DNA of 61,618 bases from an uncultured Bdellovibrionales bacterium (GTDB lineage: Bacteria > Bdellovibrionota_C > UBA2361 > CAZKXU01), in the NCBI GenBank assembly GCA_964556665.1, contig CAZKXU010000006.1:1-61618 (forward strand), read 5' to 3'. The first letter of the stretch is position 1. Each line of letters opens with the position of its first letter. A model generated the notes under the pieces. That model made no database searches and was not told where the DNA came from. It saw only the letters and a program-made list of their open reading frames with translations. Both the position numbers and the translations under genes were made by a program. Shown here piece after piece: positions 2,595 through 40,051 of the stretch.

Positions 2595-3539
2595 ATGCAA
2601 AATGAATTTGATTTAATAAAAAGCCTATGCGCAGCCTTGCCGCTTGATAAAAATGTTAACATTGTTGTGCCTAACGGAGATGATGCCGCAGTAACAGAAA
2701 TAGGTGATAAGCTGATAGCCGTTACAACAGACTGCATGGTCGAAGGGGTGCATTTTGATCGAAGCTTTATCTCGGCTGCGCAGCTTGGAAGGAAAGCGAT
2801 AGAGGCGGCAGCTTCTGATATTATAGCTGTTGGCGGCGATCCTACTCAGTGCTATCTATCATTATTCCTTCCGCTGCAGATTGAGGAACAGTACCTAGTC
2901 GAGGTTTATAGAGGAGTGGGTGCCTCGTTGAAGCGCCTAGGGGTCACCTTTATGGGAGGAAATACTAGCCGCGCCAGAGAGCTTATCCTCTCTGTTACCA
3001 TACTTGGGGAGATTCCGGAACGAAGATATCTCTTGCGAAGAAGCGGCGCTAAGGCAAGGGATAATATCTATGTTACAGGAAATTTAGGTGGTTCAGCTGC
3101 AGGACTGTATGTACTGCAGAATAAGATAGAGGGATATGATGGTTTGAAACGGAAGCACCTTGAGCCGTATTGTCGTAGCGATATTATCGGTCAAATTAGA
3201 GAGGTGGCAAGCGCTGCGATTGATCTTAGCGACGGTCTTACCTCTGACCTTAGACATCTTTGCGAAGCAAGCAAAGTAGGGGCGCGCCTTCGCAGTGAGT
3301 GTCTCCCGATTAATACTGAGCTAAGAGAGTTAAGTGCAGCCTCAGGCTTGGACAGTTTGGAGTTGGCATTAAACGGAGGGGAGGAGTATGAGATACTTTT
3401 TACCTCTGCAGAGAGATTGTCAGGAGATTTTACACTTATCGGTCAAATCATAGAAGGTTCAGACGTCTTTCTAGATCGTAACGGCGTTCAGATGGTGTTA
3501 CCTCCGAAAGGTTATAACCACCTGAATAGTAAAATTTAA
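2595..3539 (+). CDS. thiL: Thiamine-monophosphate kinase
   Basis: GDDAAV, D.MVEGVHF, SDIIAVGG, IDLSDGL..DL, GGEEYEILFT. Confidence 0.92.
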   Translation: MQNEFDLIKSLCAALPLDKNVNIVVPNGDDAAVTEIGDKLIAVTTDCMVEGVHFDRSFISAAQLGRKAIEAAASDIIAVGGDPTQCYLSLFLPLQIEEQYLVEVYRGVGASLKRLGVTFMGGNTSRARELILSVTILGEIPERRYLLRRSGAKARDNIYVTGNLGGSAAGLYVLQNKIEGYDGLKRKHLEPYCRSDIIGQIREVASAAIDLSDGLTSDLRHLCEASKVGARLRSECLPINTELRELSAASGLDSLELALNGGEEYEILFTSAERLSGDFTLIGQIIEGSDVFLDRNGVQMVLPPKGYNHLNSKI

Positions 3540-3627
3540 TGACAGATATGTCTGACTGCGAGCTGAAAACATAGATTTTAGGAAGCTTCTCAACAGTCCT
3601 GGGCCTTTGTAAATTGCGTAAGTTTAA

Positions 3628-3727
3628 AATTAACCACAGGAGTCACGGTGGCACAGAGGGAAAGCAGGAGTAATTGGCCTATAGCAGTTATTTTCCTCTG
3701 TGTCCTCCGTCACCCCTGTGCTTAATT
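3628..3727. repeat. Imperfect ~37-bp inverted repeat (CACAGAG/CTCTGTG-type REP-like element) between convergent thiL and pepP
   Basis: aattaaccacaggagtcacggtggcacagagggaaa ... ttttcctctgtgtcctccgtcacccctgtgcttaatt. Confidence 0.7.
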
Positions 3728-3791
3728 CCTGATAACCGCCTGCTTCTAATTACCTGAGGTTGTTGAGCAGTTACGATTTTAGGGGGCAAGC

Positions 3792-5081
3792 CTACAACGG
3801 CGGCACAAAGTCGCATTGCATCAATGTCTCGATCTCATCTATTGATTTTGGAAATGGAGATAAGACTTCAGAGCCGCCTGAAGTTATGTGTACATCATCC
3901 TCGATTCTGATACCGCAAGCAGGGACACGGCCGATCTTTTTTGGGAAATACAATCCAGGCTCAATCGTAATCACCATGCCCTTTCTTAACGGGGCTTTGT
4001 TGTTGCCTCGCAGGTTCCCTATATCATGTACATCTAATCCTAAACTATGACCGATGCCATGCGGAAAGTATGGCTTAAAAGCACCTTTTGCCATTAACTT
4101 CGATGTCTTGCCTCGCAACACTCCAAGCTCAATCAGTCCTACTGTCAGTATTCGTGCTGCGGCATTATATGCGTCTCCAATCGGCACGCCATCTTTTACT
4201 TTATCAATAGCAGCAAGCTGAGATTCAAGTACGATTGAGTAAAGCTCCTTTTGCAAGGCTGAAAATTTTCCGCTAACTGGAAAAACTCTAGTCTGATCTG
4301 CGGCATAGAGCTTCTGCTCTGCTCCCCAATCCACTAGCAGTAAATCCTCATTATTTAATCTGCGTGAGTGGGCATGGTAATGTAGTGTTGCGGCTGATGG
4401 GCCGGCTGCTACGATAGTACCAAAGGCAGGATAGCAATGATCCATGCGGAATCCGTAATCAATAGTTGCAGCTATCTCATGCTCCGTTACGCCGGGATGT
4501 ATGAGCGGTAGTGCAAAGCGAAGCACATTTCCACTAATCTCTCCTGCCTTTTTAATTAACCTGATCTCCTCTGCGTCTTTAATTATACGGAGATCCTCTA
4601 AAAGCACCTCGGCATGAGAGAATGTTTTGGGAAGCTGACTGCGTAGGTGTATCTGACGATTCATAAGATCGGCTACGAGGCTCTGCAACAACGAACCGAC
4701 AGTATTAGTGTGATAGAGGATCTCTATATTTTTAAGTAGTTTTAAAAGATCTGACTTTGGATTGACAGTATGGATAAGTGTTGCTCCTAGGGATGATGCT
4801 AGGGCAGTAGCATCAACACCTTTACCCTCCCACACTATAAGGGAGCGATCCGTTTTAGGAGTGATTAATACTGGTTTTTTTTCACTGCTTGAAATAACTA
4901 GAAAAGTAGATCGGATCTCAGACCCAGTCAGGTAGTAGAAGTTACTATCCTGACGGTAAGGGAATGAAGTATCCCGAGATCTGATCTGCGCCGGAGCGGA
5001 CTCAAGAATCATGGCAGCAGAACGATCATTCTCCAAACGGCTTTTAATTTTTGTGATTCGATTTCTATGTAGTTTATCCAT
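3792..5081 (-). CDS. pepP: Xaa-Pro aminopeptidase (M24)
   Basis: YRQDSNFYYLTG, LHY, D.G....YAAD.TR, HGIGHSLGLDVHD, TIEPGLY, GIRIEDD. Confidence 0.93.
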   Translation of the reverse strand: MDKLHRNRITKIKSRLENDRSAAMILESAPAQIRSRDTSFPYRQDSNFYYLTGSEIRSTFLVISSSEKKPVLITPKTDRSLIVWEGKGVDATALASSLGATLIHTVNPKSDLLKLLKNIEILYHTNTVGSLLQSLVADLMNRQIHLRSQLPKTFSHAEVLLEDLRIIKDAEEIRLIKKAGEISGNVLRFALPLIHPGVTEHEIAATIDYGFRMDHCYPAFGTIVAAGPSAATLHYHAHSRRLNNEDLLLVDWGAEQKLYAADQTRVFPVSGKFSALQKELYSIVLESQLAAIDKVKDGVPIGDAYNAAARILTVGLIELGVLRGKTSKLMAKGAFKPYFPHGIGHSLGLDVHDIGNLRGNNKAPLRKGMVITIEPGLYFPKKIGRVPACGIRIEDDVHITSGGSEVLSPFPKSIDEIETLMQCDFVPPL

Positions 5082-5510: not shown

Positions 5511-8249
5511 ATGTCGACCAACATTTTCTCTACACTAGGACCGAACTCCGGACTAATCCGTGAGCTTTATGAGCTTTATCTTGACGATCCAAGTCTTGTT
5601 GATAAATCCTGGGCTGATTACTTTGCTGCACTGAATGGTGTTGCCGTTGCGTACACTAACGGAAATCATCAAGCGCAGACCGCAAGTGCTTTACCATCGA
5701 CTAATCTTGCAGTTCAAGAGAAGGCTGTACTCTTAGTGCAGGCTTACCGCAATTGGGGCCATTTCAGAGCTGCTTATAATCCGTTAAGCAAAGGTGTTGA
5801 GCCTAGACCTGAGCTCTCAAGTCTCAAACTCGAAAATTTTGAGATCTCTTCCGCAGAGATGGAGGCAACCGTGCGCGTATCTAATTTCGCAGGGCGGTCA
5901 GAGATGAAGTTGGCGGAATTAGTTTCTGCATTAAAGCAAGTTTACTGTGGAAGCATAGGCTTTGAGTATAATCATATAAATAACGATGCGGCTAGAAACT
6001 GGCTGGAGGCAACGATTGAGGAGCGTTACGGAGCAGCGGCATCGCTACCTGACGCACGTAAGATCAGAATACTAAAGAACATCATTGAGTCTGAGGTTTT
6101 AGAGCAGGAGCTCACCAAAAGATATCCAGGACAGACGAGATTCTCTCTCGAAGGAAGTGATACGTTAATAGCGATCCTCGACACCATCTTGGCAGATTGT
6201 GCTGTGCAAGGTGTACGCGAAGTTATTATGGGGATGGCGCATCGTGGCAGGGTCAATGTGCTAGTCAACACTTTAGGTAAGCCGCTTAATAAATTGCTTG
6301 CCGAGTTCGAGGATTTAACTATCCATGCAAAGCTTGGCTCAGGTGATGTGAAATACCATCTTGATTACAGCACTAAATATAAAGGCCCTAACGGTGAAAC
6401 AGTCGAAGCTTACCTTGCTCCAAATCCATCCCATCTTGAGTTTGTAAGTCCTGTAATAGAAGGTATTGTAAGGGCTAAACAGGATCTTAATTATGCACGT
6501 GACCGAAAAGTCGTTTTGCCGTTATTGATGCATGGCGAGGCTGCCTTTGTAGGGCAGGGGATCGTTTCTGAAACGTTTCAACTCTCACAAGTAGAGGGAT
6601 ACAAAACAGGCGGAACTATTCATTTGGTAACAAATAATCAGGTGGGTTTTACAACGAGTCCTTATGAAGCAAGGTCCTCTGCATACTGCAGTGATTTTGC
6701 TAAGGCAGTAAATGCTCCTGTCTTCCATATTAATGCGGAGGATCCGATTGCCTGTGCTTGGGCAGCTTCGCTTGCCCTGCAGTTTAGGCAACGCTTCGGT
6801 ATCGACTTTGTGTTGGATATCTATGGCTACAGAAAACTTGGACATAATGAAGGTGATGACCCAACATACACTCAGCCTGCCATGTATCAGGAGATTAAGG
6901 CTAAGCGCACAATCGGACAGATTTTTTCAGAGCAGTTAATCGGTGCCGGGGTAGTAGAGAAGCGCTTGGTCGATGAATTTATGGGCGAGGTGCGTGATCG
7001 CTTTGAGATTGCTGATAAACTTAAGAACAGAGCAGGCAGCGGAGAGGCTTGTGGATTAGTGGGCAAGCTTCGTGTTACGACTCCTAAAACTGCAGTAAGC
7101 TTAGAAGACCTAAGACGGGTAGCTGCAAGTATGATCACATATCCAGAGGGCTTTGTGCCTCATCCGAAGCTTAAAGGCATCTTAGAGAAAAGAGTTTCGA
7201 CACTTGAAAGCGGGGGAATTGACTGGGGATTCGCCGAGGGACTTGCCTTTGGATCATTAGTTTTGGAAGGACATGCAGTTCGTCTGAGCGGTCAGGACTG
7301 TTGTCGTGGCACTTTTGGTCAGCGCCATCTTGGCCTTACGCACTATGAAACCCATGAGATTGTCAGGCCGCTTAATCAGCTAGCGCAGCCAAACTCAGAT
7401 GTGTTCTTTGAGGTCTATAATAGTATCCTCTCGGAGAGCGCTGTGATGGGGTTCGAATTCGGGTATTCAACGGTTGCCAACCGTGCATTAGTACTATGGG
7501 AGGGGCAGTTTGGTGATTTTTCAAATGGTGCCCAGGTAATTATTGATCAATTTCTTGCTAGCTCAGAGGCGAAGTGGAATCAGTTCTCCGGGCTCACGCT
7601 TCTATTGCCGCATGGGTATGAAGGACGCGGTCCAGAGCATTCAAGTGCTAGGTTAGAGAGGTATCTGCAGCTTTGCGCTGAAGGCAATATGACGGTTTGT
7701 TATCCAAGTAATTCGGCGCAGCATTTTCATCTGATGCGCAGGCAGGGGCTGACTGTGTTGCAGCGACCATTGATCGTAATGACACCGAAGAGTCTTTTAA
7801 GACTGCCTGAGGCGGCCTGCACAGCGAAAGATCTTAGCACTGGGGAGTTTAAACCCATAATTGAAACAGACTATACAAAAGATGGTAAGGCAAAGTACGT
7901 AGTCTTTCTTAGCGGCAAGGTTTTTTATGACGTAGCCGGTGCTTTATCGAAACTAAATGGCTGCCCTGTAAAAGTTATACGTATGGAGCAGCTCTATCCG
8001 CTGCCTGAGAAGGAGATAAAGGCAGCTCTTAAGGCCTTAACGCCGAAAAAATATATCTGGGTTCAAGAGGAGCCTGAGAATATGGGTGCCTGGAATTTTG
8101 CAGACTACCGTTTCCGTACGGAGTTAGGAATTGAGCTAGAGTATATCGGTCGTCCACTAAGCGCCAGTACAGCTACCGGATCAGGCAAAAGAAGCGCTGC
8201 TGAGGTGGTTGAGTTCCTTGATGTATTGGTAAAGAGAGTGCAGGGGTGA
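5511..8249 (+). CDS. sucA: 2-oxoglutarate dehydrogenase E1
   Basis: RFSLEG, GMAHRGR, GDVKYH, NPSHLE, NNQVGFTT, GHNEGD, LLLPHGYEGRGPEHSSAR, WVQEEPENMGAW. Confidence 0.96.
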   Translation: MSTNIFSTLGPNSGLIRELYELYLDDPSLVDKSWADYFAALNGVAVAYTNGNHQAQTASALPSTNLAVQEKAVLLVQAYRNWGHFRAAYNPLSKGVEPRPELSSLKLENFEISSAEMEATVRVSNFAGRSEMKLAELVSALKQVYCGSIGFEYNHINNDAARNWLEATIEERYGAAASLPDARKIRILKNIIESEVLEQELTKRYPGQTRFSLEGSDTLIAILDTILADCAVQGVREVIMGMAHRGRVNVLVNTLGKPLNKLLAEFEDLTIHAKLGSGDVKYHLDYSTKYKGPNGETVEAYLAPNPSHLEFVSPVIEGIVRAKQDLNYARDRKVVLPLLMHGEAAFVGQGIVSETFQLSQVEGYKTGGTIHLVTNNQVGFTTSPYEARSSAYCSDFAKAVNAPVFHINAEDPIACAWAASLALQFRQRFGIDFVLDIYGYRKLGHNEGDDPTYTQPAMYQEIKAKRTIGQIFSEQLIGAGVVEKRLVDEFMGEVRDRFEIADKLKNRAGSGEACGLVGKLRVTTPKTAVSLEDLRRVAASMITYPEGFVPHPKLKGILEKRVSTLESGGIDWGFAEGLAFGSLVLEGHAVRLSGQDCCRGTFGQRHLGLTHYETHEIVRPLNQLAQPNSDVFFEVYNSILSESAVMGFEFGYSTVANRALVLWEGQFGDFSNGAQVIIDQFLASSEAKWNQFSGLTLLLPHGYEGRGPEHSSARLERYLQLCAEGNMTVCYPSNSAQHFHLMRRQGLTVLQRPLIVMTPKSLLRLPEAACTAKDLSTGEFKPIIETDYTKDGKAKYVVFLSGKVFYDVAGALSKLNGCPVKVIRMEQLYPLPEKEIKAALKALTPKKYIWVQEEPENMGAWNFADYRFRTELGIELEYIGRPLSASTATGSGKRSAAEVVEFLDVLVKRVQG

Positions 8250-8276
8250 GGGGTTTTTTAGTTAGTTGCTGTCAGT

Positions 8277-8397
8277 GTAATTGCTCAAAAAGTGTGGGCA
8301 CTGGGAGCGCGGGCTTCCAGCCCGCAAATAAGTAGCAGCTAATTCGTTTGCGGGCAGGATGCCCGCGCTCCCAGTGCCTACACCTTTGAGCAATTAC
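8277..8397. repeat. 76-bp REP doublet (REPIN, 8300-8375) wrapped in outer GTAATTGCTCAAA/TTTGAGCAATTAC inverted repeats
   Basis: actgggagcgcgggcttccagcccgc-24 nt-gcgggcaggatgcccgcgctcccagt inside a perfect 13-bp outer IR. Confidence 0.85.
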
Positions 8398-8615
8398 GTG
8401 TCTGTCCTTTTAGGACGTAAACTAACTACCCAGTAAGCGCTGAAAAACACACCTGTATTTCAAAATCCGTTATCGCTATTACTCTGATTATGATATATCG
8501 TTATATTGGGTAGAGGAGAGTAAGGTTTTTGTGCAGTGAGGCGGCTAAAGTGTAGAAGGACTTTGGCCGCTTCACCTGCAGTAGGTGAGGTAACTGATAC
8601 GGAGGGGGTTCCCCA

Positions 8616-9230
8616 ATGGCTAGCCACAGTCTCGAGAGTGCAGTGAAGGCTCTTGCGTTTGAGATTCCGTCTGCGCGTCGAAGGTACATCATAACGGCAC
8701 TGCTCGTGTTCCTGACGTTTTGCATCACTCCAGCCCTGATGCAACCGGCCTTGAAAAGAGGACTGGGAAGCTTTTACTCTGACGGCTATCTCATGTTCCT
8801 CACTCTCGGTGTCACATGTCTGGTACTCATGTTCACGTTTGAATGGGCAAAATCGGCTGTTAATGCCGCCACAAGACGTCTACGACTCGAAGGGCTGGGA
8901 GAACCGATTGTCGGTATGGGGTACACAATCCTCCCTGTGCGGGTCGAAACCGTGACAACGACCGTCATTGATGGGGCTGAATGGGTGATCCTGACGGTGA
9001 GTCAGAAGGTAGGTAACTCGGAGCGATACTTCCTCAAAGCTACAGAGGAGGCGCTATCATCGATCGCTGCTCTGAAGATGCTCCAACCTGACGACCTCAT
9101 CTGCCTCCAGCCAGGGGATGAGCGAGAAAAAGTGAATGGATGGAGACCGATTTGTTCATGGTCGTACGGCAAGGTGGTATTCGACTCGGAGAGGCGACGC
9201 CTCCGAGTTGTATCAGCGGCCGCGGCCTGA
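8616..9230 (+). CDS. Hypothetical membrane protein with two predicted TM segments
   Basis: ORF track; GGAGGG RBS upstream; hydrophobic YIITALLVFLTFCIT and YLMFLTLGVTCLVLMFTF; strong hairpin right after the stop. Confidence 0.7.
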   Translation: MASHSLESAVKALAFEIPSARRRYIITALLVFLTFCITPALMQPALKRGLGSFYSDGYLMFLTLGVTCLVLMFTFEWAKSAVNAATRRLRLEGLGEPIVGMGYTILPVRVETVTTTVIDGAEWVILTVSQKVGNSERYFLKATEEALSSIAALKMLQPDDLICLQPGDEREKVNGWRPICSWSYGKVVFDSERRRLRVVSAAAA

Positions 9231-9244
9231 TCGGAGCAGCATGC

Positions 9245-9280
9245 AGCGGCCCCGAGGAGCACCTCCTCCTCGGGGCCGCT
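9245..9280 (+). terminator. Perfect 15-bp GC-rich hairpin downstream of the 8616 gene (terminator or stabiliser)
   Basis: agcggccccgaggag-cacctc-ctcctcggggccgct; no immediate U-tract. Confidence 0.55.
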
Positions 9281-9487
9281 AGCCGTGGTTCTTTGAATGT
9301 TACAGGCTCTTCTACCCGGCTAAGCCTAGAGCTAGAGTTCATTACCAAGGGTAATCCACTCTAAGGAGTGTTCACCATGTTACCATCAGAGCGTCTCAGT
9401 GGCAGCGCTATAGATAGCATAGTAAATAAAAACATCACATTTACTTGCCATTTGGGCGTGTCATCCATTTGGGAAAAGCCAGTTTCC

Positions 9488-11122
9488 TTAGGTCGAATGG
9501 CTCTGCAGAGCCAGATCTGTATAATAAGACGCAATTCCTAAGTAAACTGCAATAAAGGTTGCGATGGCGGGTATCTGAAATGGAAAGTCAAAAAAGCTTC
9601 CAAATAGAAATCCTGTAATTCCTGAAAGAAGTCCTATCAGGATGTATTTTCGCGGAGCTGGGATTACTTTTATGGCTCTTAAAGAATAACGAAAAAATAG
9701 AAATACTAATGCGAGAAGCGGTAATACACCTACTAGACCGACCTCTGCAATGATCTGCAACGGATCGGAGTGTAAATAGACAGGGTTAATTCCTGAAATC
9801 TCAGTTGACATGTAGCTCGGAAAGGCTGCAGCCCAGCCGCCTATGCCTACTCCAAAGAGCGGATGTGCGGCGATCATCTTAAATGTATCTGCATAAAGAA
9901 CTGCTCGAATATCATCCGTAGTATACAAAAGGCCGTATTCAATACGAGCACCAACAAGCTCAGCACCTTTTTGATTGAGGAAAAGATAGAAAATAAATAA
10001 CGCGAAAAGAAAGGCGAGTGGTCTTATGAATCTCGCTGCAAGTGTGAAAAACCGCTCAATGTTGAATGTCCTATTCCGTTCCCGATTTCTAGAATGTTTG
10101 CGGCTACGAGGAACGGCATTGATATTAAGATCTAACTCCGAACTCGCCTGCGTAGTTTTCGGCTTGCTAAGATAACTTAGGAAAACAAAGGTGAGCATTC
10201 CAATACTGGTAGCTAGCCAGGTGCCGCGAGACAGAGTCGCCGCTATGGTTAGTAAAATAAGTAGAGCCACTACAGCAAATATCCCTGCTCGAATTAGACT
10301 TAGATGCAAGGTCACGTTGGAGATAATAGTGGTCCAAGCGCGCCTTCTCCTCTTATTTCCTATATCCAAACTTGTTCGCTTTAAACCATCAGTGCTGGCG
10401 AGAAATCGCCCCAAAGTAAGGAATAATGCAGGTACGAGAAAGTAGCCTAAATGATTGGGGTTAACAAACGGCCAACGCGCACGCTCCGATATAAAAACAG
10501 AGTCAGGCTCGAACATCCAAAACAGCTTGCCGTTATCGTAGAACCAGTGGCTTAAAGCTACGAAGCAGATGAGTGAGGTGATAAAGATTGTAAGACTGAT
10601 AAGGCTAATAGAATTGTTGCGTAATGATGCGCAATAAACCCGTGTCAGAGCAAATACTGCGAAGAACATTAATAATGATCTCAGCGCCGGAAGTAATGTA
10701 TCAAAATTGATGATCTTAGTATGACTACCTAATATCGGATGAGCTGAAGAGATTAGAGAAAACACTATAATTTGCAGAATCAGATAGCCAAGAAAAAGGA
10801 GTGCGCAGCTTTTTACTCCTGCTAATAATTTCGCTTTATTATCAAATATGTTGCCTAGAGCAGGAGCCGCAAAAATAAAGAGCATTAAAATTAAAGAGAA
10901 TGTAAGAATTTGGGCTGTAAGATAAACTCTTTGATGAACTGCGCCAAAGAGAATAGGCATGCTGAGCAATGTAAGCACGCCGCAGCTTTGAATCAATCGT
11001 GATAGCCAGTTAGGCAGCAAAGGCTTTTCGGGCAGTCTTGCATTTTTAATTCTCCAAGGAGCAGCATCCTGCTCTAAGACTAACTGTTCATATGCAACTT
11101 CATTTCTATCTGCTAAATTCAT
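9488..11122 (-). CDS. O-antigen ligase (Wzy_C) family membrane protein
   Basis: Multi-TM; PFVNPNH, TLSRG, HPLFGVGIG, YLHSDPLQ..AEVG..G, FDFPFQIP. Confidence 0.85.
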   Translation of the reverse strand: MNLADRNEVAYEQLVLEQDAAPWRIKNARLPEKPLLPNWLSRLIQSCGVLTLLSMPILFGAVHQRVYLTAQILTFSLILMLFIFAAPALGNIFDNKAKLLAGVKSCALLFLGYLILQIIVFSLISSAHPILGSHTKIINFDTLLPALRSLLMFFAVFALTRVYCASLRNNSISLISLTIFITSLICFVALSHWFYDNGKLFWMFEPDSVFISERARWPFVNPNHLGYFLVPALFLTLGRFLASTDGLKRTSLDIGNKRRRRAWTTIISNVTLHLSLIRAGIFAVVALLILLTIAATLSRGTWLATSIGMLTFVFLSYLSKPKTTQASSELDLNINAVPRSRKHSRNRERNRTFNIERFFTLAARFIRPLAFLFALFIFYLFLNQKGAELVGARIEYGLLYTTDDIRAVLYADTFKMIAAHPLFGVGIGGWAAAFPSYMSTEISGINPVYLHSDPLQIIAEVGLVGVLPLLALVFLFFRYSLRAIKVIPAPRKYILIGLLSGITGFLFGSFFDFPFQIPAIATFIAVYLGIASYYTDLALQSHST

Positions 11123-24312: not shown

Positions 24313-24388
24313 ACTGGGAGTGCGGGCTTCCAGCCCGCAAACGAATTAAATGTTACTGCGTAGTGGGCAAGATGCCCTCGCTCCCAGT
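24313..24388. repeat. 76-bp REP doublet
   Basis: actgggagtgcgggcttccagcccgc ... gtgggcaagatgccctcgctcccagt. Confidence 0.85.
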
Positions 24389-33712: not shown

Positions 33713-33750
33713 GTCCAATAAATAGTCCCAATAAATAGTCCCAATAAATA
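33713..33750. repeat. Three tandem GTCC(C)AATAAATA units abutting the left end of the transposase element
   Basis: gtccaataaata gtcccaataaata gtcccaataaata then gtctcagtgac. Confidence 0.9.
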
Positions 33751-33751
33751 G

Positions 33752-35107
33752 TCTCAGTGACGACGATAATTATAAATGAGTTGAAGTGAAATAGTGTAAG
33801 AGGCTGATATTATTGTCTGATAGATAGTAAGGCTAGTGAAGGAATAAGGGTGATAAGCAACAAACAGAGATGTTCTCCGAATACATAGATATAAGGAGAA
33901 ATCTATGGGCTATCACCCAAGAATTGAGAGTGAGAAGTTTGCATCATTTTTGACTACCAGAACTAGGAACTCAGAGCTCTGGTTTATCAACAACAAGCCG
34001 TTAGAGATGGCGGTGTTAGGATATGCCGCAAAGTATGCCGAACGTTATGAAGTAAAGCTATACGCCTTGGCTATAGAGGGGAATCATACCCAAGGCCCAG
34101 CACATTTTCCAAAGTGCAATCGATCACACTTTATGAGAGATCTAAACTCGTCCATAGCACGAGCCGTGAAGCGCCTTACTCCGGAGTATCCTGGAGGCAG
34201 ATTATGGGGACGACGATACTCCGCCGAATTTATGCCTGGGGAGGAAGATATTGAAGATCGCTTCTTCTACACAGTATTGCAGCCTGTGCAGGATGGTCTT
34301 GTGGAGAAGATATCTGAGTACCCCGGATATAACTGTTTTCATGATGCTATTCATGGGATTAAGCGAAAGTTTAAGGTACTAAAAATTGGTGCGTATAATG
34401 ACGCTAAACGCTTTAATCCACAGATTCCCATTAAAGATTACATTGATACGGTGACGTTAGAATATGCAAGACTTCCAGGTTACGAAGATCTGACACAAAG
34501 TGAATATGCTAAATTGATGCAAAAAAAGTTTGAGGAGCGTCGGGTTAAAATTGTTGCTGAGCGTTATAAAGCTGGCAAGGGTTTTGCTGGTAAGGAGAAT
34601 TTGCTAAAGACCGAGCGCGGAGCCAAGCCTAAGAGTACAAAAACATCCACCTCTACTAGCCATCGCCCACGGGTTCTTTCTGTATGCCCTAAACGCTTAC
34701 AGGCATGTAAACTTTGGTACTTTAAAATTTATTTCGATTATAGGGATGCTTCAAAGCGTTATCGCGAAGGGAAGGATGAGGTAATCTTTCCGGATGGTAC
34801 ATATAAACCTTACCGATCTCTCAATCCTTTTTGGAGTGATGGGGCACCGCCTAAGACATAATTCAAAATCTCAGCGCCACTGATTAGCCTGATCGGCAAC
34901 ATGAAATCTAAATTGACGACTTCTCAGGCTCGCCTGGTGTGGGTGTATGCGTTCATCTAAAAATCTACAGGTATAACCAGTATTGATCCTGAAATTAACA
35001 CCTTGCTAGCAACTTATTAAGACAAATACTGATAATTTATCGGTTGCACTATTTTTCGCATCACCAAATACTTACTCAATCGATCGTTGTTATCGGTGTC
35101 ACTGAGA
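33752..35107 (+). mobile_element. Element carrying a RAYT-like Y1 transposase, bounded by 18-bp inverted repeats
   Basis: Left TCTCAGTGACGACGATAA (33752-33769); right TTATCGGTGTCACTGAGA (35090-35107); 16/18 match. Confidence 0.8.
33905..34861 (+). CDS. Y1/HUH transposase (IS200/RAYT-like) with variant motifs
   Basis: FLTTRT, LYALAIEGNHTQ (HUH-like), FMRDLNS, G.LW.RRY, YTVLQPVQDGLV (Y1 helix), C-terminal FPDGTY. Confidence 0.82.
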   Translation: MGYHPRIESEKFASFLTTRTRNSELWFINNKPLEMAVLGYAAKYAERYEVKLYALAIEGNHTQGPAHFPKCNRSHFMRDLNSSIARAVKRLTPEYPGGRLWGRRYSAEFMPGEEDIEDRFFYTVLQPVQDGLVEKISEYPGYNCFHDAIHGIKRKFKVLKIGAYNDAKRFNPQIPIKDYIDTVTLEYARLPGYEDLTQSEYAKLMQKKFEERRVKIVAERYKAGKGFAGKENLLKTERGAKPKSTKTSTSTSHRPRVLSVCPKRLQACKLWYFKIYFDYRDASKRYREGKDEVIFPDGTYKPYRSLNPFWSDGAPPKT

Positions 35108-35161
35108 AAATATTAGGAAGAAAATATTAGGAAAATATTAGGGGGGAAGGAAAATATTAGG
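35108..35161. repeat. Four (A)AAATATTAGG units plus short GG/AAGG fragments abutting the right end of the element
   Basis: actgaga aaatattagg aag aaaatattagg aaaatattagg gggg aagg aaaatattagg. Confidence 0.9.
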
Positions 35162-35248
35162 GAGCGGCATAGTTGTTTGTTAATTCACTCTTCTGAAGCC
35201 TTTTCCCACTGCCTTGCCACAACAGCACACATCTGCTATTAGATCGCC

Positions 35249-36796
35249 ATGAGAGATTCAGTTTTAATTCTAGATTTTGGCTCACAATTCACCCAACTTA
35301 TTACACGCCGCATTCGCGAGCTAGGACTTTTTAGTGAGATAAAGCCCTGTCATATCTCCCCTGATTCAGTTGATACCTCCAAGATCCAGGCACTTATCCT
35401 GTCCGGAGGACCTGCCGGTGTAACCGATAGTGATGCACCGAAATTCGATCGTCGTTGGTTAGAGCTCGGATTACCTACGCTTGGGGTATGTTACGGTATG
35501 CAGTTAATCTCCCATATCTTTGGAGCAAAGCTTGGTAAGGGAGCAGCGCGGGAATACGGACGCGCAACTCTAGAAATAAAAGACAACACAGATCTTTTTA
35601 GCTCCTTTGATTTAGGTGAGAAAACCACAGTCTGGATGAGTCACGGAGATCATGTCGAAACGGTAGCACCTGGATTTACATTATTAGCAAGCTCTAAGAA
35701 CTGTGAGGTTACTGCTATCGCAGATCGTGAGCGTAAGATCTATGCAGTGTTGTTCCACCCGGAAGTAGTGCATACGGCTCGCGGCACTGACTTACTTTCC
35801 AATTTTATATTCAAGATAGCTAAGCTTAAAAAGAACTGGAGCTCGGAAGGGTTTATAGCAGATAGCGTGGAGAGGATACGCAATGCTGTTGGTTCTACTA
35901 ATGTAATCTGCGGCTTGAGTGGTGGTGTAGATTCAAGCGTCGCAGCAGCCTTAGTTTCCAAGGCCATTGGTAATCAATTACACTGTCTATTTATAGATAA
36001 TGGATTGCTGCGTAAACATGAGGCTCAGGAGGTAATGGATAGACTGGGTAGCTCAGGACTAGGGCTAAACGTTAAATTAATTGATGCTTCGAGTAGGTTT
36101 CTTAGTGAGCTAAAAGGGGTCACTGATCCTGAGAAAAAGCGTAAGATTATCGGACGGGTTTTTATTGAGGTCTTTGATGAAGAGGCCCATAAAATTTCAA
36201 ATGTTACACATCTTGTTCAAGGCACGCTATATCCCGATGTGGTTGAAAGCATGTCGGTGCGCGGCGGACCATCAACAACAATCAAAACTCACCATAATGT
36301 AGGCGGCCTGCCAGAGAAAATGAAGTTAAAATTGATAGAACCTTTCCGAGAACTTTTCAAAGATGAAGTACGACGACTCGGTGCCGAATTAGGTATCAGT
36401 GATGATATTCTTTATCGTCATCCTTTTCCTGGGCCAGGTTTGGCAGTGCGTGTTCTAGGAGACATAACGCCAGAACGACTAAAAATTACCCGTGATGCTG
36501 ATGCTATATTCATTGAGGAGCTCCGCGCCGAGGGACTCTATCGCAGTATCTGGCAGGCCTTTGCTGCTTTACTGCCAGTTCAGTCCGTAGGAGTGATGGG
36601 GGATGGTAGAACCTATGAGCAGGTAGCTGCGCTGCGAGCAGTTTATTCTGAAGACGGAATGACCGCCGATTGGGTGGATCTTCCTGTCGCCCTCCTAAAG
36701 CGTGTTAGCAGTCGCATCATTAATGAGGTCAAAGGGATTAACAGGGTAGTATATGATATTTCAAGCAAGCCGCCCTCCACTATAGAATGGGAATAG
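35249..36796 (+). CDS. guaA: GMP synthase (glutamine-hydrolysing)
   Basis: [44 protein letters not shown]. Confidence 0.97.
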
Positions 36797-36975
36797 AAAG
36801 CTGGACAAAATCCATAACGCATAACGGAGAGACAATAGAGATTACCTTTATTAGACGCCCTTTTAGAGAGGGGCTAGAGGCTATTGCGCGCTTTAGAGGG
36901 AAGGAGGTGCGCATTGCTGAGTTGGGTTTAGGGGAGAATGCCTTGATTGAAAGAATTATTAAGGAACTGAGTTGA
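36787..36975 (+). CDS. Small hypothetical protein overlapping the guaA stop
   Basis: 62-aa ORF with a 10-nt overlap; ends just before a REP doublet. Confidence 0.5.
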
Positions 36976-37002
36976 TTAAGCAAAAGTTACATTAATCATA
37001 AG

Positions 37003-37078
37003 ACTGGGACCGCGGGCTTCCAGCCCGCTACGAAATACTATCAAATGAGTCTGCGGGCAGGATGCCCGCGGTCCCAGT
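37003..37078. repeat. 76-bp REP doublet
   Basis: actgggaccgcgggcttccagcccgc ... gcgggcaggatgcccgcggtcccagt. Confidence 0.88.
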
Positions 37079-37163
37079 TCTACAGGTTTTGAGGTGCAAA
37101 TAAGCTAATTTCATAATCTTCCCTATCGAGTTTAAGCTTGAGGTGTAATATAATACAAGTGAT

Positions 37164-38087
37164 ATGCGCATCATCTCCTTATCTCCATTTATCACCGAAA
37201 CAATCTTTACCCTAGGCCTTGAAACTTCCCTAGTTGGCATTAGTCATGATGTAGAATACCCCAAAGGTGTGGAGAAGATTAAATGGATTACGGTCGATCG
37301 TAATGCTGCGCCAACATGGAAGAAGAGAGACACACTGCTAGAGACAAAGCTTGCAAGCGGATTAGTGGATCTAGACTTAATGGCATCACTTAAGCCAGAT
37401 ATAATACTTACATCGCTGGATCCAACTGATGGTGGTGCTCTACTTAACCAGCTTCGCAATAATCTGTCCTCGATATTTGAGACAGTCCCCAAATTATTAT
37501 CCTTCTTCCCTACTAATTTAGATAAGATTTATGAGAGTTTTGCACGGCTGGGGAAGGAGCTAGGTGCGGCTACTCAAGGCCATGAGTTGGCCTCACGGGT
37601 ACGCGCTCAGTTTATGGATTGGGCAGATAACTTTTATGATCGTACAAAGAATAAGAAAGTATCATTTATAGGTGGATACAATCCGCTCTTATTATCCGGA
37701 CTTTGGATCCCTGACATGATTAAAACAGCCTCAGCCGTAAGTCACAATCCAAACTCAGGCGAGGGTGCACTAGCTATCGGATGGGAGGACCTTGTTAGTT
37801 TTAAACCTGATGTAATTATTTTTGCCCCTCATAACAGAGACCTCACCGGTTCTATGAAGCTGTTAGGAGAGTTAGAGAAGTTGCCGCAATGGGAGCAGGT
37901 TCCTGCGGTGAAACGAGGAGAGTTCTTTTTTGTAGATGGGAGGCTTTTTATCTCTCCTGGACCACGAATAATAGAGGCTATGTCTATAATCGAATCAGCG
38001 ATAGCTGGAATTGATAGTGGTTATATAAGTGCAAGGGGCTCCTTTCAGCGGCTTAGATATGTTGAGTTGCATCGGCATAAGTTGTAA
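37164..38087 (+). CDS. BtuF/TroA-like substrate-binding-fold protein without signal peptide
   Basis: MRIISLSP..TE.IF.LG...LVGIS, LKPDIIL, W.QVPAVK.G, PGPRI. Confidence 0.8.
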   Translation: MRIISLSPFITETIFTLGLETSLVGISHDVEYPKGVEKIKWITVDRNAAPTWKKRDTLLETKLASGLVDLDLMASLKPDIILTSLDPTDGGALLNQLRNNLSSIFETVPKLLSFFPTNLDKIYESFARLGKELGAATQGHELASRVRAQFMDWADNFYDRTKNKKVSFIGGYNPLLLSGLWIPDMIKTASAVSHNPNSGEGALAIGWEDLVSFKPDVIIFAPHNRDLTGSMKLLGELEKLPQWEQVPAVKRGEFFFVDGRLFISPGPRIIEAMSIIESAIAGIDSGYISARGSFQRLRYVELHRHKL

Positions 38088-38098
38088 AAGATAAGTAT

Positions 38099-38506
38099 AT
38101 GTCTACACGCGCAACCTGGCTACAAACGCCACTTAACGATACCGCGTCATTAGAGCGCTTAACTGCAGAGCGTCTAAAGTCACGATTTCATTCCGGCTCC
38201 ATTAATCTTGAGGAATACAACTCAGTTACTGAGATGAAGCGTACTTTATTTAGTGGAGCATTAAAGCTTGGTCCGCAGGAGCTTGAGAATCTTAGAAAAT
38301 TATGTCAGCTCTGGGATATTGATATAAGGCCGGTAGAAGTTACCTCACACCGCAAATTTATCGGACCATTTATAGTACTAGGCAAAAAGATAATCTATCC
38401 GATCTTAAGAGTTCTATTAAAGGATCTCCTGCGCCAACAGCGGGAATTTAATGCGACTAGCTTAAGTATGATTGCTTATCTTATAAAAGATAAAAACGCC
38501 CAGTAA
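38099..38506 (+). CDS. Hypothetical protein
   Basis: ORF track; 11 nt after the upstream gene; SHR..IG..IV..KK...LL..Q.EFN amphipathic segment. Confidence 0.7.
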   Translation: MSTRATWLQTPLNDTASLERLTAERLKSRFHSGSINLEEYNSVTEMKRTLFSGALKLGPQELENLRKLCQLWDIDIRPVEVTSHRKFIGPFIVLGKKIIYPILRVLLKDLLRQQREFNATSLSMIAYLIKDKNAQ

Positions 38507-38531
38507 GGAAACATATATTTTTCCTAACCTC

Positions 38532-38828
38532 CTAATTGAAGATTATTTTTGCCTCTGTTCGTTTCTGGATCTCATCTTTTTGGATACCTGGTGCTAGTGC
38601 TCCTCCAAATAAGTTTTTTCACGTCTAGCATCACATCGTTGCCCCACCTTGTCACGCTTCTCAGTCGGAAAATCCTCGCAATACTCCAGTATTGCTGCGG
38701 ATTTCCTCCTTCCGAGGCGTGCCAATCTGGGGCAACGCTGCGCGCTATACGTGAAAAAACTTATTTGGCGAAGCACTAGTTCGATCAGCTTTAATCCTCC
38801 AGCAACTACTTTGCGAGATCTCCATCTT
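38532..38828 (-). pseudogene. Degenerate duplicate of the scoB 3' end, interrupted by a MITE and internally deleted
   Basis: 38532-38597 and 38776-38809 match 43332-43427 (RTEAKIIFN* vs RTEAKLIFN*); 38813-38828 matches 43624-43639. Confidence 0.88.
38594..38779. mobile_element. Palindromic MITE flanked by duplicated CTAG
   Basis: ctagtgctcctccaaataagttttttcacgt ... acgtgaaaaaacttatttggcgaagcactag; central gcaatact-cc-agtattgc lies on the symmetry axis; removing it restores continuous scoB sequence. Confidence 0.88.
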
Positions 38829-38878
38829 TGCATTCAGCCCAAAAAATTCTCACCCAAAAGATTTTCCCCAAAAAACTT

Positions 38879-39151
38879 TCTCAGTGACAACGCTTACGGT
38901 TGTTATAGTTGAGTTGATTTCAAAGCAGCAGAAAATATGAATTACTTCAGGGAATAAGGTCAAATCTAGTCGCCAATATCTTACGTGCTTTAGAGAAAAA
39001 TATGCTTTGAAGGCATATTTTAAGGCAAACATAGCTCGCTAACTGGCTTAATACTTAGCGCTAATATTCTGTATATATTGGGTTTTTAGTCACCAGCTTA
39101 AGTGATTTAAAATCTACAACTTTTATTAGGAGGTTCGCAATGTCAGTGAGA
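38879..39151. mobile_element. Non-autonomous 273-bp element with the same end motif as the transposase element
   Basis: Left TCTCAGTGACA, right TGTCAGTGAGA; both flanked outward by GG-terminated short repeats (38838-38878; 39152-39177). Confidence 0.72.
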
Positions 39152-39377
39152 CAAGGTGCTAGGGTGCTAGGTGCTACGAAATATTAGTATAAAATTCCAA
39201 ATAATACCTATGAACCATATTGTGCAATTCCCATGACCTTACTTTAGAGAGATTTTTATCTAATTTAATTAAAAGCTAAATTTTAGGTAACTCATCTTCT
39301 CATTTTTATAATAACAATATTAACGGTCGCTTGTTATAGAAAAACATTTGACCAATTTATTATTCTAGAGGTTTTAT

Positions 39378-39791
39378 ATGCGTAATTTACTTTGTCTTGC
39401 TCTTTCAATAGCAGTTGTACTACCAATAGTTGCATCTGCTCAAATAGCACCTGGGTTTAATATTAAGCGACTTGAAAAGCGGCTGCAGACAGATGGTTTT
39501 ATCAATGGTAAAAATTGTTATTGGCGCTTGACCAATGAAGTGAGAGTCTCAGCCGGTGCTAACGACCTCAAAATTATTCATAATATTTCATGCAATAGTG
39601 GCGATCTGTTCTATAGTAGTAATTTCTATCAAACAAGAGGAGGATCACTGAAAATTCTAGATGGAGGCGGCGATTTTACTGGTTCAGGTTATTTACCTGA
39701 GGGTAAAAACCATACTATATATGTAACTAATTTGGATCCTAGTAACGATGGGTATTTAGAATTTTCAGCTCTTTGTTGCCCAATATCGTAA
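39378..39791 (+). CDS. Small secreted hypothetical protein
   Basis: gagg RBS, signal peptide ending ASA, hairpin after the stop. Confidence 0.72.
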   Translation: MRNLLCLALSIAVVLPIVASAQIAPGFNIKRLEKRLQTDGFINGKNCYWRLTNEVRVSAGANDLKIIHNISCNSGDLFYSSNFYQTRGGSLKILDGGGDFTGSGYLPEGKNHTIYVTNLDPSNDGYLEFSALCCPIS

Positions 39792-39805
39792 GTCTTGTTA
39801 ATAAG

Positions 39806-39833
39806 CCTAAATCCGGTTAAGGCCGGGTTTAGG
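39806..39833 (+). terminator. Hairpin, probable terminator
   Basis: cctaaatccgg-ttaagg-ccgggtttagg; weak U-tract. Confidence 0.5.
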
Positions 39834-39990
39834 TACTTCCGGGAACTGGCGCCAGGCAACTTATTAAATGCTGCTGAAATATCAAAAGATATTTGTAGGT
39901 GAAGTAACGATTATTCCAAAGAGAGGCTCTATTTGTTAGCCATTAATTATTTCAAATGGTTGAAGCCTGATATTTTAAGTAACTTAAAAA

Positions 39991-40051
39991 TATCGTCGTG
40001 TGTGAGAAAACGTGCAGGAAAACGTGCAGGGGCAGGGGGGGAAACGTGCAG
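39991..40051. repeat. Degenerate element end (tatcgtcgtgtgtgaga) followed by AAACGTGCAGG repeats and truncated units
   Basis: tgaga aaacgtgcagg aaaacgtgcagg ggcagg ggggg aaacgtgcag. Confidence 0.75.

Follow-up and report, generated by a model that had tools for sequence, protein, structure and literature searches.

How do short tandem repeats come to lie directly outside the ends of a transposable element? This question is raised by a 61,618-nucleotide (nt) stretch of DNA from an uncultured Bdellovibrionales bacterium (assembly GCA_964556665.1, contig CAZKXU010000006.1; the whole stretch is called the window here), in which a Y1 HUH transposase gene and relatives of its ends lie between positions 33715 and 40051. 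In this region lie an autonomous element, a miniature element, and a solo end, all from a single element family that occurs across the predatory-type Bdellovibrionota and is probably mobilized by a transposase of this kind. All five ends (5/5) carry (T)NNNTGAGA, and each is followed outward by a short unit, the tail, that is repeated in 2 to 4 copies. The sharpest boundary of such arrays is the 5' one, which falls inside the conserved word TGAGA (TGA/GA, with the slash marking the break), and the arrays are specific to this type of end. Their break points probably mark the places where a transposase that acts on single-stranded DNA cuts and rejoins it.

Five ends and their tandem tails

The autonomous element is bounded by the end sequence TCACTGAGA at 33752-33760 (minus strand) and 35099-35107 (plus strand), which, like the other ends in the region, was located by reading the sequence and by motif search. 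These ends are part of 18-nt terminal inverted repeats (TIRs), TCTCAGTGACGACGATAA at 33752-33769 and its pairing partner TTATCGGTGTCACTGAGA at 35090-35107 (both given for the plus strand; 89% complementary), which enclose a plus-strand gene at 33905-34861 for a RAYT/TIRYT-like Y1 HUH transposase of 318 amino acids (aa), as judged from its open reading frame (ORF), profile, alignment, and model. Outward from the left end, on the minus strand, the array at 33715-33751 reads ACTATTTATTGGG, ACTATTTATTGGG, and ACTATTTATTGG before it meets the unique flank ACAAT. A repeat search describes it as ACTATTTATTGG(G) x3 at a spacing of 13, and it has a period of 13, 3 copies, a left limit of -2 (TGA/GA), and a microhomology of 0 nt. 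The right-end array (35108-35162, plus strand) consists of four copies of AAAATATTAGG with AAG, a G-run, and AAGG bits between them. A further copy of the end sequence, TTATCGGTTGCACT, lies subterminally at 35037-35050 (plus strand, 86% identical to 35090-35103) and is possibly a second protein-binding site.

The miniature element is a non-autonomous element of 273 bp at 38879-39151 that resembles a miniature inverted-repeat transposable element, with ends TCTCAGTGA ... TCAGTGAGA and relatives on contigs C70 and C119. Its end sequences are TCACTGAGA at 38879-38887 (minus strand) and TCAGTGAGA at 39143-39151 (plus strand). The left array (38838-38878, minus strand) reads outward AAAGTTTTTTGGGG, AAAATCTTTTGGG, and TGAGAATTTTTTGGG, three diverged T-rich units that end in GGG, with TGAGA inside the outermost one. 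On the right (39152-39176, plus strand), CAA is followed by three copies of GGTGCTA and one additional G, giving a period of 8 and a left limit of +3. A long hairpin of the REPIN kind was considered for this element and rejected, as its DNA fold z-score of 0.15 is no better than that of shuffled sequence.

The solo end, TGTGTGAGA at 39999-40007 (plus strand), belongs to a right end at 39979-40007 (plus strand) that end clustering assigns to the TGTGTGAGA subfamily (gtaacttaaaaatatcgtcgTGTGTGAGA). No inverted partner was found within the window, where gtaacttaaaaatatcgtcgTGTGTGAGA matches once. Its array (40008-40051, plus strand; period 12, left limit -2) has two copies of AAAACGTGCAGG, GCAGG, a G-run, and then AAACGTGCAG.

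Across the window, TCASTGAGA occurs 6 times compared with 1.29 expected, and the extra occurrences at 23818 and 24820 have neither a repeat behind them nor an element-like context. The initial annotation of this DNA had reported tandem arrays at these five ends, and both sequence reading and repeat search found all of them. It had also excluded target-site duplication and described units that reach back into the GA or TGAGA of the element end. Both points hold, since the two flanks of one element differ and lack direct repeats, and the array listings contain such units.

Array boundaries and period

One array detector was used throughout, set to a period of 8 to 17, at least 80% identity, and no indels. 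Among 57 arrays from this genome and all related loci, 36 have a period of 12 to 14 nt. Six of the 57 rows were dropped as chance or low-complexity matches (C1, C36, C111, L090, L115, and L020). Of the other 51 arrays, 26 have their left limit at -2 (TGA/GA), 12 at 0, and 4 at -3, and 38 have a unit that starts with a G that follows an A. In the arrays that contain a perfect duplication (n = 41), the left limit is at -2 in 22 and at 0 in 8. Where the frame is unambiguous, our reading of the rows gives a unit that begins with GA after an A in 14 of 17 arrays. Of the 41 perfect arrays, 17 show no microhomology (0 nt), 19 show 1 nt, and 5 show at least 2 nt. Junctions that are this sharp and this poor in homology, inside a conserved word, argue against slipped-strand mispairing and for cutting and joining at a defined site.

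The initial annotation had described a fixed GG at the 3' side of each unit and a variable 5' side. This had to be reversed: it is the left break that is sharp, falling at TGA/GA in 22 of the 41 perfect arrays. The 3' end of the unit lies 12 to 14 nt after that break, mostly but not always behind a G, and a terminal GG is common but not universal. A stricter rule, by which each unit boundary falls after a G, was likewise discarded; it fits many arrays but fails at L153, C31, L031, L071, and others.

Arrays are specific to this type of end

The genome is a 163-contig draft of 3.3 Mb. In it, a tandem lies behind 24 of 415 T[CG]N[CG]TGAGA sites, compared with 168 of 20000 random positions (0.84%), and at least three copies occur at 4 of the 415 sites versus 0 of the 20000 positions. 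A curated set of 34 ends was formed from end clusters 0, 1, 19, and 47 minus two doubtful members, and the tail was not used for the choice. An array was called at 18 of these 34 ends, and three further ends are repeated by eye. The same signal appears outside this genome. In related loci, a tandem follows 22 of 182 outward-facing NNNNTGAGA sites, while the controls gave 3 of 81 for inward-facing sites and 0 of 144 for sites inside the gene. At least one array was found in 15 of 80 related loci, and homologous elements in other Bdellovibrionota assemblies thus have arrays of the same kind. For three further repeat families of this genome, a tandem follows 0 of 113, 0 of 21, and 2 of 290 end matches. 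From these controls (other families, random positions, inward-facing sites, and sites inside the gene) we conclude that the arrays belong specifically to this type of end.

The first of these three other families is a palindromic REPIN-like repeat of about 77 nt, present in the window at 37003-37078 and 24313-24388 (ACTGGGAsCGCGGGCTTCCAGCCCGC..GCGGGCArGATGCCCGCGsTCCCAGT), whose half-site occurs 83 times and whose end word occurs 290 times in the genome. It flanks both sides of a classical RAYT gene on contig C108 (232 aa, with NHVH and YIETNPV motifs), and this genome therefore holds a separate classical REPtron. A second, highly repeated miniature element with ..TTATTTGGAGGAGCACTAG ends lies at 38594-38779 of the window. 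It has 69 copies in one cluster, and its summed contig depth is about 500 in three sequencing runs, against 3 to 5 around it; none of its 113 end matches has a tandem tail. The third is a miniature family outside the window (C7, C26, C27, C36, C49, C62, and other contigs) with inverted ends ..GGAGG CTTATGAGAAATGSCGGCTAG about 110 to 160 bp apart, and no tandem tail was seen in its 21 end matches.

Composition and origin of the tails

The word TGAGA is nearly invariant in the 34 curated ends, with T, G, A, and G in 34/34 and the final A in 32/34. Conservation continues outward into the tail. Positions +1, +2, and +3 are A in 27, 33, and 31 of the 34 ends, positions +4 to +8 are T-rich, and G peaks at +11 (21/34) and +12 (25/34). 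This conserved pattern argues for an end that is longer than the 9-mer of the initial annotation, and the functional end appears to extend beyond TGAGA through AAA, a T-rich stretch, and a G-run at about +11/+12.

The tails mostly travel along with the element, because independent insertions with unrelated outer flanks carry the same tails. A AAAGTTCAAGTGG or AAAGTTCAAAGG tail is found at six ends of the TGTGTGAGA subfamily; elsewhere, contigs C53 and C32 have AAATTGTTG.. in common and C71 and C103 have AAATAC.., and CAATCGCGAAGG occurs twice in L130. Other copies depart from this pattern. Miniature elements with identical 23-nt ends have differing tails, CAAGGTGCTAGG in the window versus CAATTTATTGGGG on C70. 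On C112, the tail AAGCGGGCAAGG x4 is the beginning of a REPIN-like repeat in the flank, and the remainder of this repeat continues after the last unit. Units of this array reach back into TGAGA and TGTGAGA, and the array stops at AAGG (+11/+12) despite a GGG at +5 to +7, which argues for a spacing rule. A tail is thus sometimes formed out of the flank, with C112 as the one clear case. The statement that the unit differs at every end is accordingly correct in part: the tail on C112 comes from its flank, but many tails follow a conserved pattern and are common to independent insertions.

Copy number differs between assemblies at one locus

One locus could be compared between two assemblies. L026, on a contig of a metagenome-assembled genome (MAG), and L153, on a metagenome contig, represent one and the same insertion, with the same flanking DNA and 98.2% identity over 1510 bp. 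The only gap between them is one 12-nt unit, GAAAATTTACAG, which is present once in L026 and twice in L153. Together, the specificity of the arrays and this variation between assemblies fit an end-specific, ongoing process.

For the window itself, contigs from three runs of one sample contain all five arrays in identical form, at a cover of about 3-4x and with no joints at the element ends. This sample is possibly the source of the window and does not count as independent support. A search for an empty site gave none, as the nearest genomes among those searched belong to the same order only and match just transposase or guaA parts, and a metagenome scan with a neighboring 490-aa protein found no relative.

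The transposase and its family

Several lines of evidence point to the nature of the 318-aa protein. Its match to Pfam Y1_Tnp (PF01797) scores 23.7 bits against a cut-off of 23, barely above it, and four copies in this genome pass that cut-off. NCBIfam REP_Tyr_transpos, the RAYT equivalog, scores 35 bits, far under its cut-off of 80. No other Pfam family matched the protein at an E value of 1 or less, the part after about residue 250 not being searched separately. Residues 61-63 of the protein form an H-T-Q motif, and Tyr122 lies in a conserved FFYTVLQP. Among 22 aligned homologues, E-G-N-H-x-Q is present in 17, H-x-H in 4, and Y-I-Q in one; FFYTVLQPVQDGLV is almost invariant, and FFY(122)TVLQP is invariant or nearly so. 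The latter aligns with YIYINPV of the Escherichia coli TnpAREP structure 4ER8, and Tyr122 is the putative catalytic residue.

An AlphaFold (AF2) model of the protein has a predicted local distance difference test score (pLDDT) of 86 and a predicted template modeling score (pTM) of 0.85. When it was compared by VIA-align with about 48,000 PDB representatives, the top match was 4ER8 (Z 12.7, root mean square deviation 3.0, 157/165 residues, model range 1-249) and the second was the IS608 transposase 2VHG (Z 7.8). The top Foldseek rows, 2F4F, 2XM3, 4ER8, and 2VJV, are all Y1 transposases (probability 1.00, E values of 0.007-0.02). Because profile, alignment, model, and structural matches agree, the protein can be placed among RAYT-like Y1 HUH enzymes, and it has insertions and a C-terminal extension; Pfam, Foldseek, and structural alignment support the earlier HUH assignment. 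As the gene is multi-copy and is flanked by inverted repeats instead of repetitive extragenic palindrome (REP) hairpins, the autonomous element is TIRYT/TIRtron-like.

This genome has 7 full-length transposase copies plus fragments, with protein identities of 72-100%, and all copies with readable flanks have ends of the same kind, with the gene between inverted repeats. Among the candidates scored, 730 database homologues were found at E values of 0.001 or less, many of them on contigs of about 1.1-1.4 kb and a few named "transposase" or "RayT." From 122 related loci in species-representative genomes, 80 were kept, and the titles of the related loci are nearly all Bdellovibrionota, Oligoflexia, or unclassified proteobacterial MAGs. 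Their flanks repeat likewise, for example GACAATCTGGGGAT x3, GAACTAACGGG(G) x3, GAGATTGTGGGA repeats, and AGAAAATTTTTTTGG(G) x4. Metagenomes were also scanned with CGCGCGGTSTCTGAGA; of 87 matches read in loci L089-L168, most are chance matches in GC-rich coding DNA, and the few true ends are L094, L095, L111, L114, L128, L130, L141, and L153.

Larger repeats were also noted. Five loci, L006 (= L082), L010 (= L083), L024, L018, and L072, have BIME-like arrays (BIME, bacterial interspersed mosaic element) where an end module of 30-45 nt is repeated 2-3 times with a different small tandem behind each module copy (e.g., CAATCCGGGGG x2, CAATTTGGGGGA x2, and CAATCTGGGGAT x3). Contig C53 has four right-end modules in one orientation inside 4 kb (6900-10800), together with a duplicated internal segment behind one array (tgctttctgaccgctccaaaaaatcc..). 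This contig is interrupted by N, and its layout suggests tandem or partial element copies. On contig C21, a CCCCAATATTTT x3 array and a run of N lie upstream of the transposase copy at 38405-39346, and beyond the run of N is a longer tract of other units led by C-runs (CCCCAACACTTT, CCCCTACACTTT, ..), which may be decayed older tails or leftovers of neighboring ends. Contig C39 (about 3400-5000) encodes a far more distant Y1 protein of about 330 aa with NHGHLLL and YVSLNPIKDQLV, and an end of the same type, ..tagTCGCTGAGAaaatattttggggg, lies about 400 nt downstream of this gene. The presence of such an end near a distant Y1 gene suggests that the end architecture predates the 318-aa clade.

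In the window, an ORF of 515 aa at 35249-36796 begins 87 nt downstream of the autonomous element and is presumably the GMP synthase gene guaA, judging by its sequence motifs. The right-end array at 35108-35162 lies in its presumed promoter region.

A proposed two-cut model and its rivals

We propose that the transposase makes two cuts 12 to 14 nt apart and that the stretch enclosed by the cuts is doubled through strand transfer or primed copying, and we would give this reading a probability of about one half. A Y1 enzyme bound to the end would cut the outward-running strand at two positions. The inner cut would fall at TGA/GA, at times at AGA/GA, and the outer cut 12-14 nt downstream, mostly right behind the G-run. 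The 3'-OH from the outer cut would then join the 5'-phosphotyrosyl GA end that the inner cut has left on a sister copy, or else it would prime re-copying from the inner site. By either route, each event would add one GA...G unit. The reciprocal event would delete the tail, so that the flank up to the next suitably spaced G would become the new tail. Once two units are present, ordinary slippage could also shift the copy number and the lengths of the G-runs. This scheme would account for arrays in mirror orientation at both ends, the period, the G/GA junction, and both carried and flank-derived tails.

Several observations weigh against the two-cut model. The outer boundary is loose, and 18 of 51 arrays have units whose last base is T, A, or C. 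Some units are truncated at the 5' side (left limit of +2 to +5 in 5/41), and some reach back 5-9 nt or about 30 nt, neither of which a strict two-site model predicts. The 1-nt G microhomology in 19/41 arrays equally fits a 3' G end that slips back onto the G of TGAGA. Sixteen of the 34 curated ends have a single tail only, the curated list was our own selection by upstream similarity, and the array detector is blind to arrays with indels. Simple slippage between units that were already there could explain the L026/L153 polymorphism. The three-run contigs rule out gross assembly error, with minor variants beyond their reach. Finally, the identity of break points with cleavage sites, the polarity, and the joining step are all deduced from footprints. 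A 3' G end that slips back, together with ordinary slippage, is likely to contribute to the truncated units, the reach-backs, and the loose boundary.

A stronger role for slippage is a separate matter. Here, slippage or unequal exchange would act without the transposase, an AT-rich stretch plus a G-run would simply be unstable, and the arrays would be minisatellites beside an element. The G-run length that differs from unit to unit, the 1-nt microhomology in 19/41 arrays, and the 1-versus-2-unit polymorphism at L026/L153, which is expected once two units exist, are in line with this idea. The first duplication, however, has no repeat on which to slip, and microhomology is 0 in 17/41 arrays. 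Slippage also does not lead one to expect breaks that cluster at one phosphodiester in TGAGA (22/41 at -2), a 12-14 nt period in 36/57 arrays, or the near-absence of tandems at other-family ends (0/113, 0/21, and 2/290) and random positions (0.84%). We therefore regard slippage as an unlikely sole cause.

Selection could instead maintain the units as iterons, that is, as extra binding or cleavage sites or G-quadruplex tracts that aid transposition or regulation, with their origin being secondary. In favor are the conservation of the AAA/T-rich/G-run pattern, the presence of arrays in many genomes and at either end of the element, and the G-rich 3' strands at both termini. Against this, the number of copies varies widely, from 1 to 7 or more, a single unit is all that 16 of 34 ends have, and point changes decay the units, as at 38838-38878. 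We doubt that selection for iterons is the primary explanation and consider it somewhat less probable than slippage; it is nevertheless compatible with the two-cut model.

That the elements inserted into or beside short tandem repeats of the AAAT..GGG type, the arrays being older host DNA, seems very unlikely. The composition pattern common to tails of different copies, the one tail from flanking REPIN-like DNA, and the identical 23-nt miniature ends with different tails on C6 and C70 agree with it. However, units contain the element's own GA and at times TGAGA, TGTGAGA, or TCAGTGAGA, so that the end must have been present before they arose. Further, other copies of the REPIN family lack a tandem (2/290), the two sides of one element have different units in mirror orientation, and the same tail is found at loci with unrelated flanks. 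The last alternative, an assembly artefact in short-read metagenome bins, can be dismissed almost entirely: the genome is a 163-contig draft and one C21 array adjoins a run of N, but the arrays in the window are each under 60 nt, as are nearly all others (the longest, C78, is about 110 nt), the contigs from the possible source sample show all five unchanged, and like architecture is seen in dozens of assemblies from different groups.

A more far-reaching version of the two-cut model goes beyond what we would expect to hold, and we offer it as speculation. In it, the element would turn about 12 nt of adjoining DNA into an element-borne tail that it carries and reiterates, the arrays would count strand transfers, and both 3' strands would be G-rich, telomere-like, and possibly G-quadruplex-forming landing or cleavage pads that the enzyme needs.

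Comparison with known systems

TIRYTs, or TIRtrons, are RAYT-like genes flanked by inverted repeats, some with GGGGWSAS (Di Nocera et al. 2013, PMC3733652), and most of them fall in TnpAY1 subclass 2.1 (Quentin et al. 2018, PMC6006769). In the literature searched, the name is confined to these two papers. As here, a Y1 RAYT-like gene lies between TIRs without REP hairpins (PMC3733652 and PMC6006769), TIRs also occur solo, dimeric, or clustered at other genomic sites, the proteins exceed classical RAYTs in length, and the ends have G-runs and a WSAS-type core (TCAC and TGAG in our family). There are differences, however. The G-run of GGGGWSAS adjoins the core, whereas here it lies 8-10 nt outside TGAGA behind an AAA/T-rich spacer; GGGG directly before TCAG is found only inside arrays (e.g., C78). 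The helix-turn-helix/DnaA_C-like C-terminal domain of subclass 2.1 has no Pfam match in our protein, whose region after about residue 250 was not searched separately. Unlike TIRtrons, the family has 7 copies in this genome and its tyrosine motif is Y-x3-QP rather than Y-x3-NP. Figures and supplements aside, the portions of the two TIRtron papers that were searched do not mention terminal reiteration of 12-14 nt.

Subclass 2.3 of TnpAY1 is described as multi-copy, about 325 aa long, and without REPs (PMC6006769). Our family is like subclass 2.3/class 3 in length (about 325 aa), core insertions, and a long C-terminal extension, and also in having more than 5 diverged copies per genome and no nearby REP. 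Members of subclass 2.3 come mainly from Chromatiales and Alteromonadales, and the comparison is by description only. The Y-x3-QP motif is intermediate between the signature of class 1 (Y-x3-Q) and that of class 2 (Y-x3-NP) (PMC6006769).

A parallel to the proposed mechanism is found in REPtrons (TnpAREP/RAYT). TnpAREP cuts at several sites around a REP, and in vitro strand transfer "can ... assemble tandem BIME copies"; the number of tandem BIMEs differs from strain to strain, and in the published model cleavage, priming, and rejoining amplify the copies (Ton-Hoang et al. 2012, PMC3333891). Our family shares with REPtrons the closest solved structure (4ER8, Z 12.7), more than one cut site around a recognition element (the cuts here being putative), strand transfer or 3'-OH-primed copying as the proposed source of tandems, and a tandem copy number that differs between strains at one locus (PMC3333891). 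The sharp break points and the one polymorphic locus fit a model of BIME-type amplification. The amplified unit differs, being a whole REP pair in REPtrons and a 12-14 nt tail, sometimes an end of about 45 nt plus tail, in our family. REPtrons have GTAG-tagged REP hairpins that are highly repeated in the genome; none were found here, where the gene lies between 18-nt inverted repeats that form no hairpin. The break appears to be at A/GA here and is at a CT dinucleotide for TnpAREP, and the REPtron gene is typically a single domesticated copy, whereas ours is multi-copy and insertion-sequence-like. Identity with classical RAYTs thus fails on NCBIfam score, REP hairpins, and copy number.

Members of IS200/IS605 (IS608 and ISDra2) share the Y1 HUH fold and the lack of a target-site duplication. 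They cleave at a set distance from the bound end sequence (PMC3333891), a logic like the spacing proposed here. Their ends, however, are asymmetric and have subterminal hairpins without inverted repeats, whereas ours are inverted repeats in which no significant hairpin was found; in IS200/IS605, a 4-nt internal guide reads the cleavage sites, and our protein is twice as long. We looked for guide pairing of the IS608 kind and found no signal: the best 9-nt match of a tail to its own subterminal DNA averaged 6.73 of 9 versus 6.65 for other ends (inverted orientation), and 6.82 versus 6.49 for the control in direct orientation. With inverted repeats present and no guide pairing, IS200/IS605 identity also fails.

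The initial annotation knew of no description of this footprint. In the literature searched, figures and supplements aside, we likewise did not find this family, its AAA/T-rich/G-run tail, or the terminal 12-14-nt reiteration with a fixed TGA/GA break. Multi-site cleavage and strand transfer, on the other hand, have been published for TnpAREP and BIMEs (PMC3333891), and the kind of mechanism is therefore already known.

Implications

TIR-associated Y1 transposases are common, and we found no biochemically studied member in the literature searched. The arrays can be read as natural footprints that point to one phosphodiester (TGA/GA) and a spacing of 12-14 nt, and would give precise and cheap predictions of the cut sites and of the reach of the enzyme's two active sites. 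They would also lend support, from within genomes of an unrelated phylum, to the strand-transfer model that has been proposed for the growth of tandem BIMEs in E. coli. If the element does take up tails from its flank and carry them along, this would be a simple form of micro-transduction by a single-strand transposon, and the arrays could be used as markers of element activity in time-series metagenomes.

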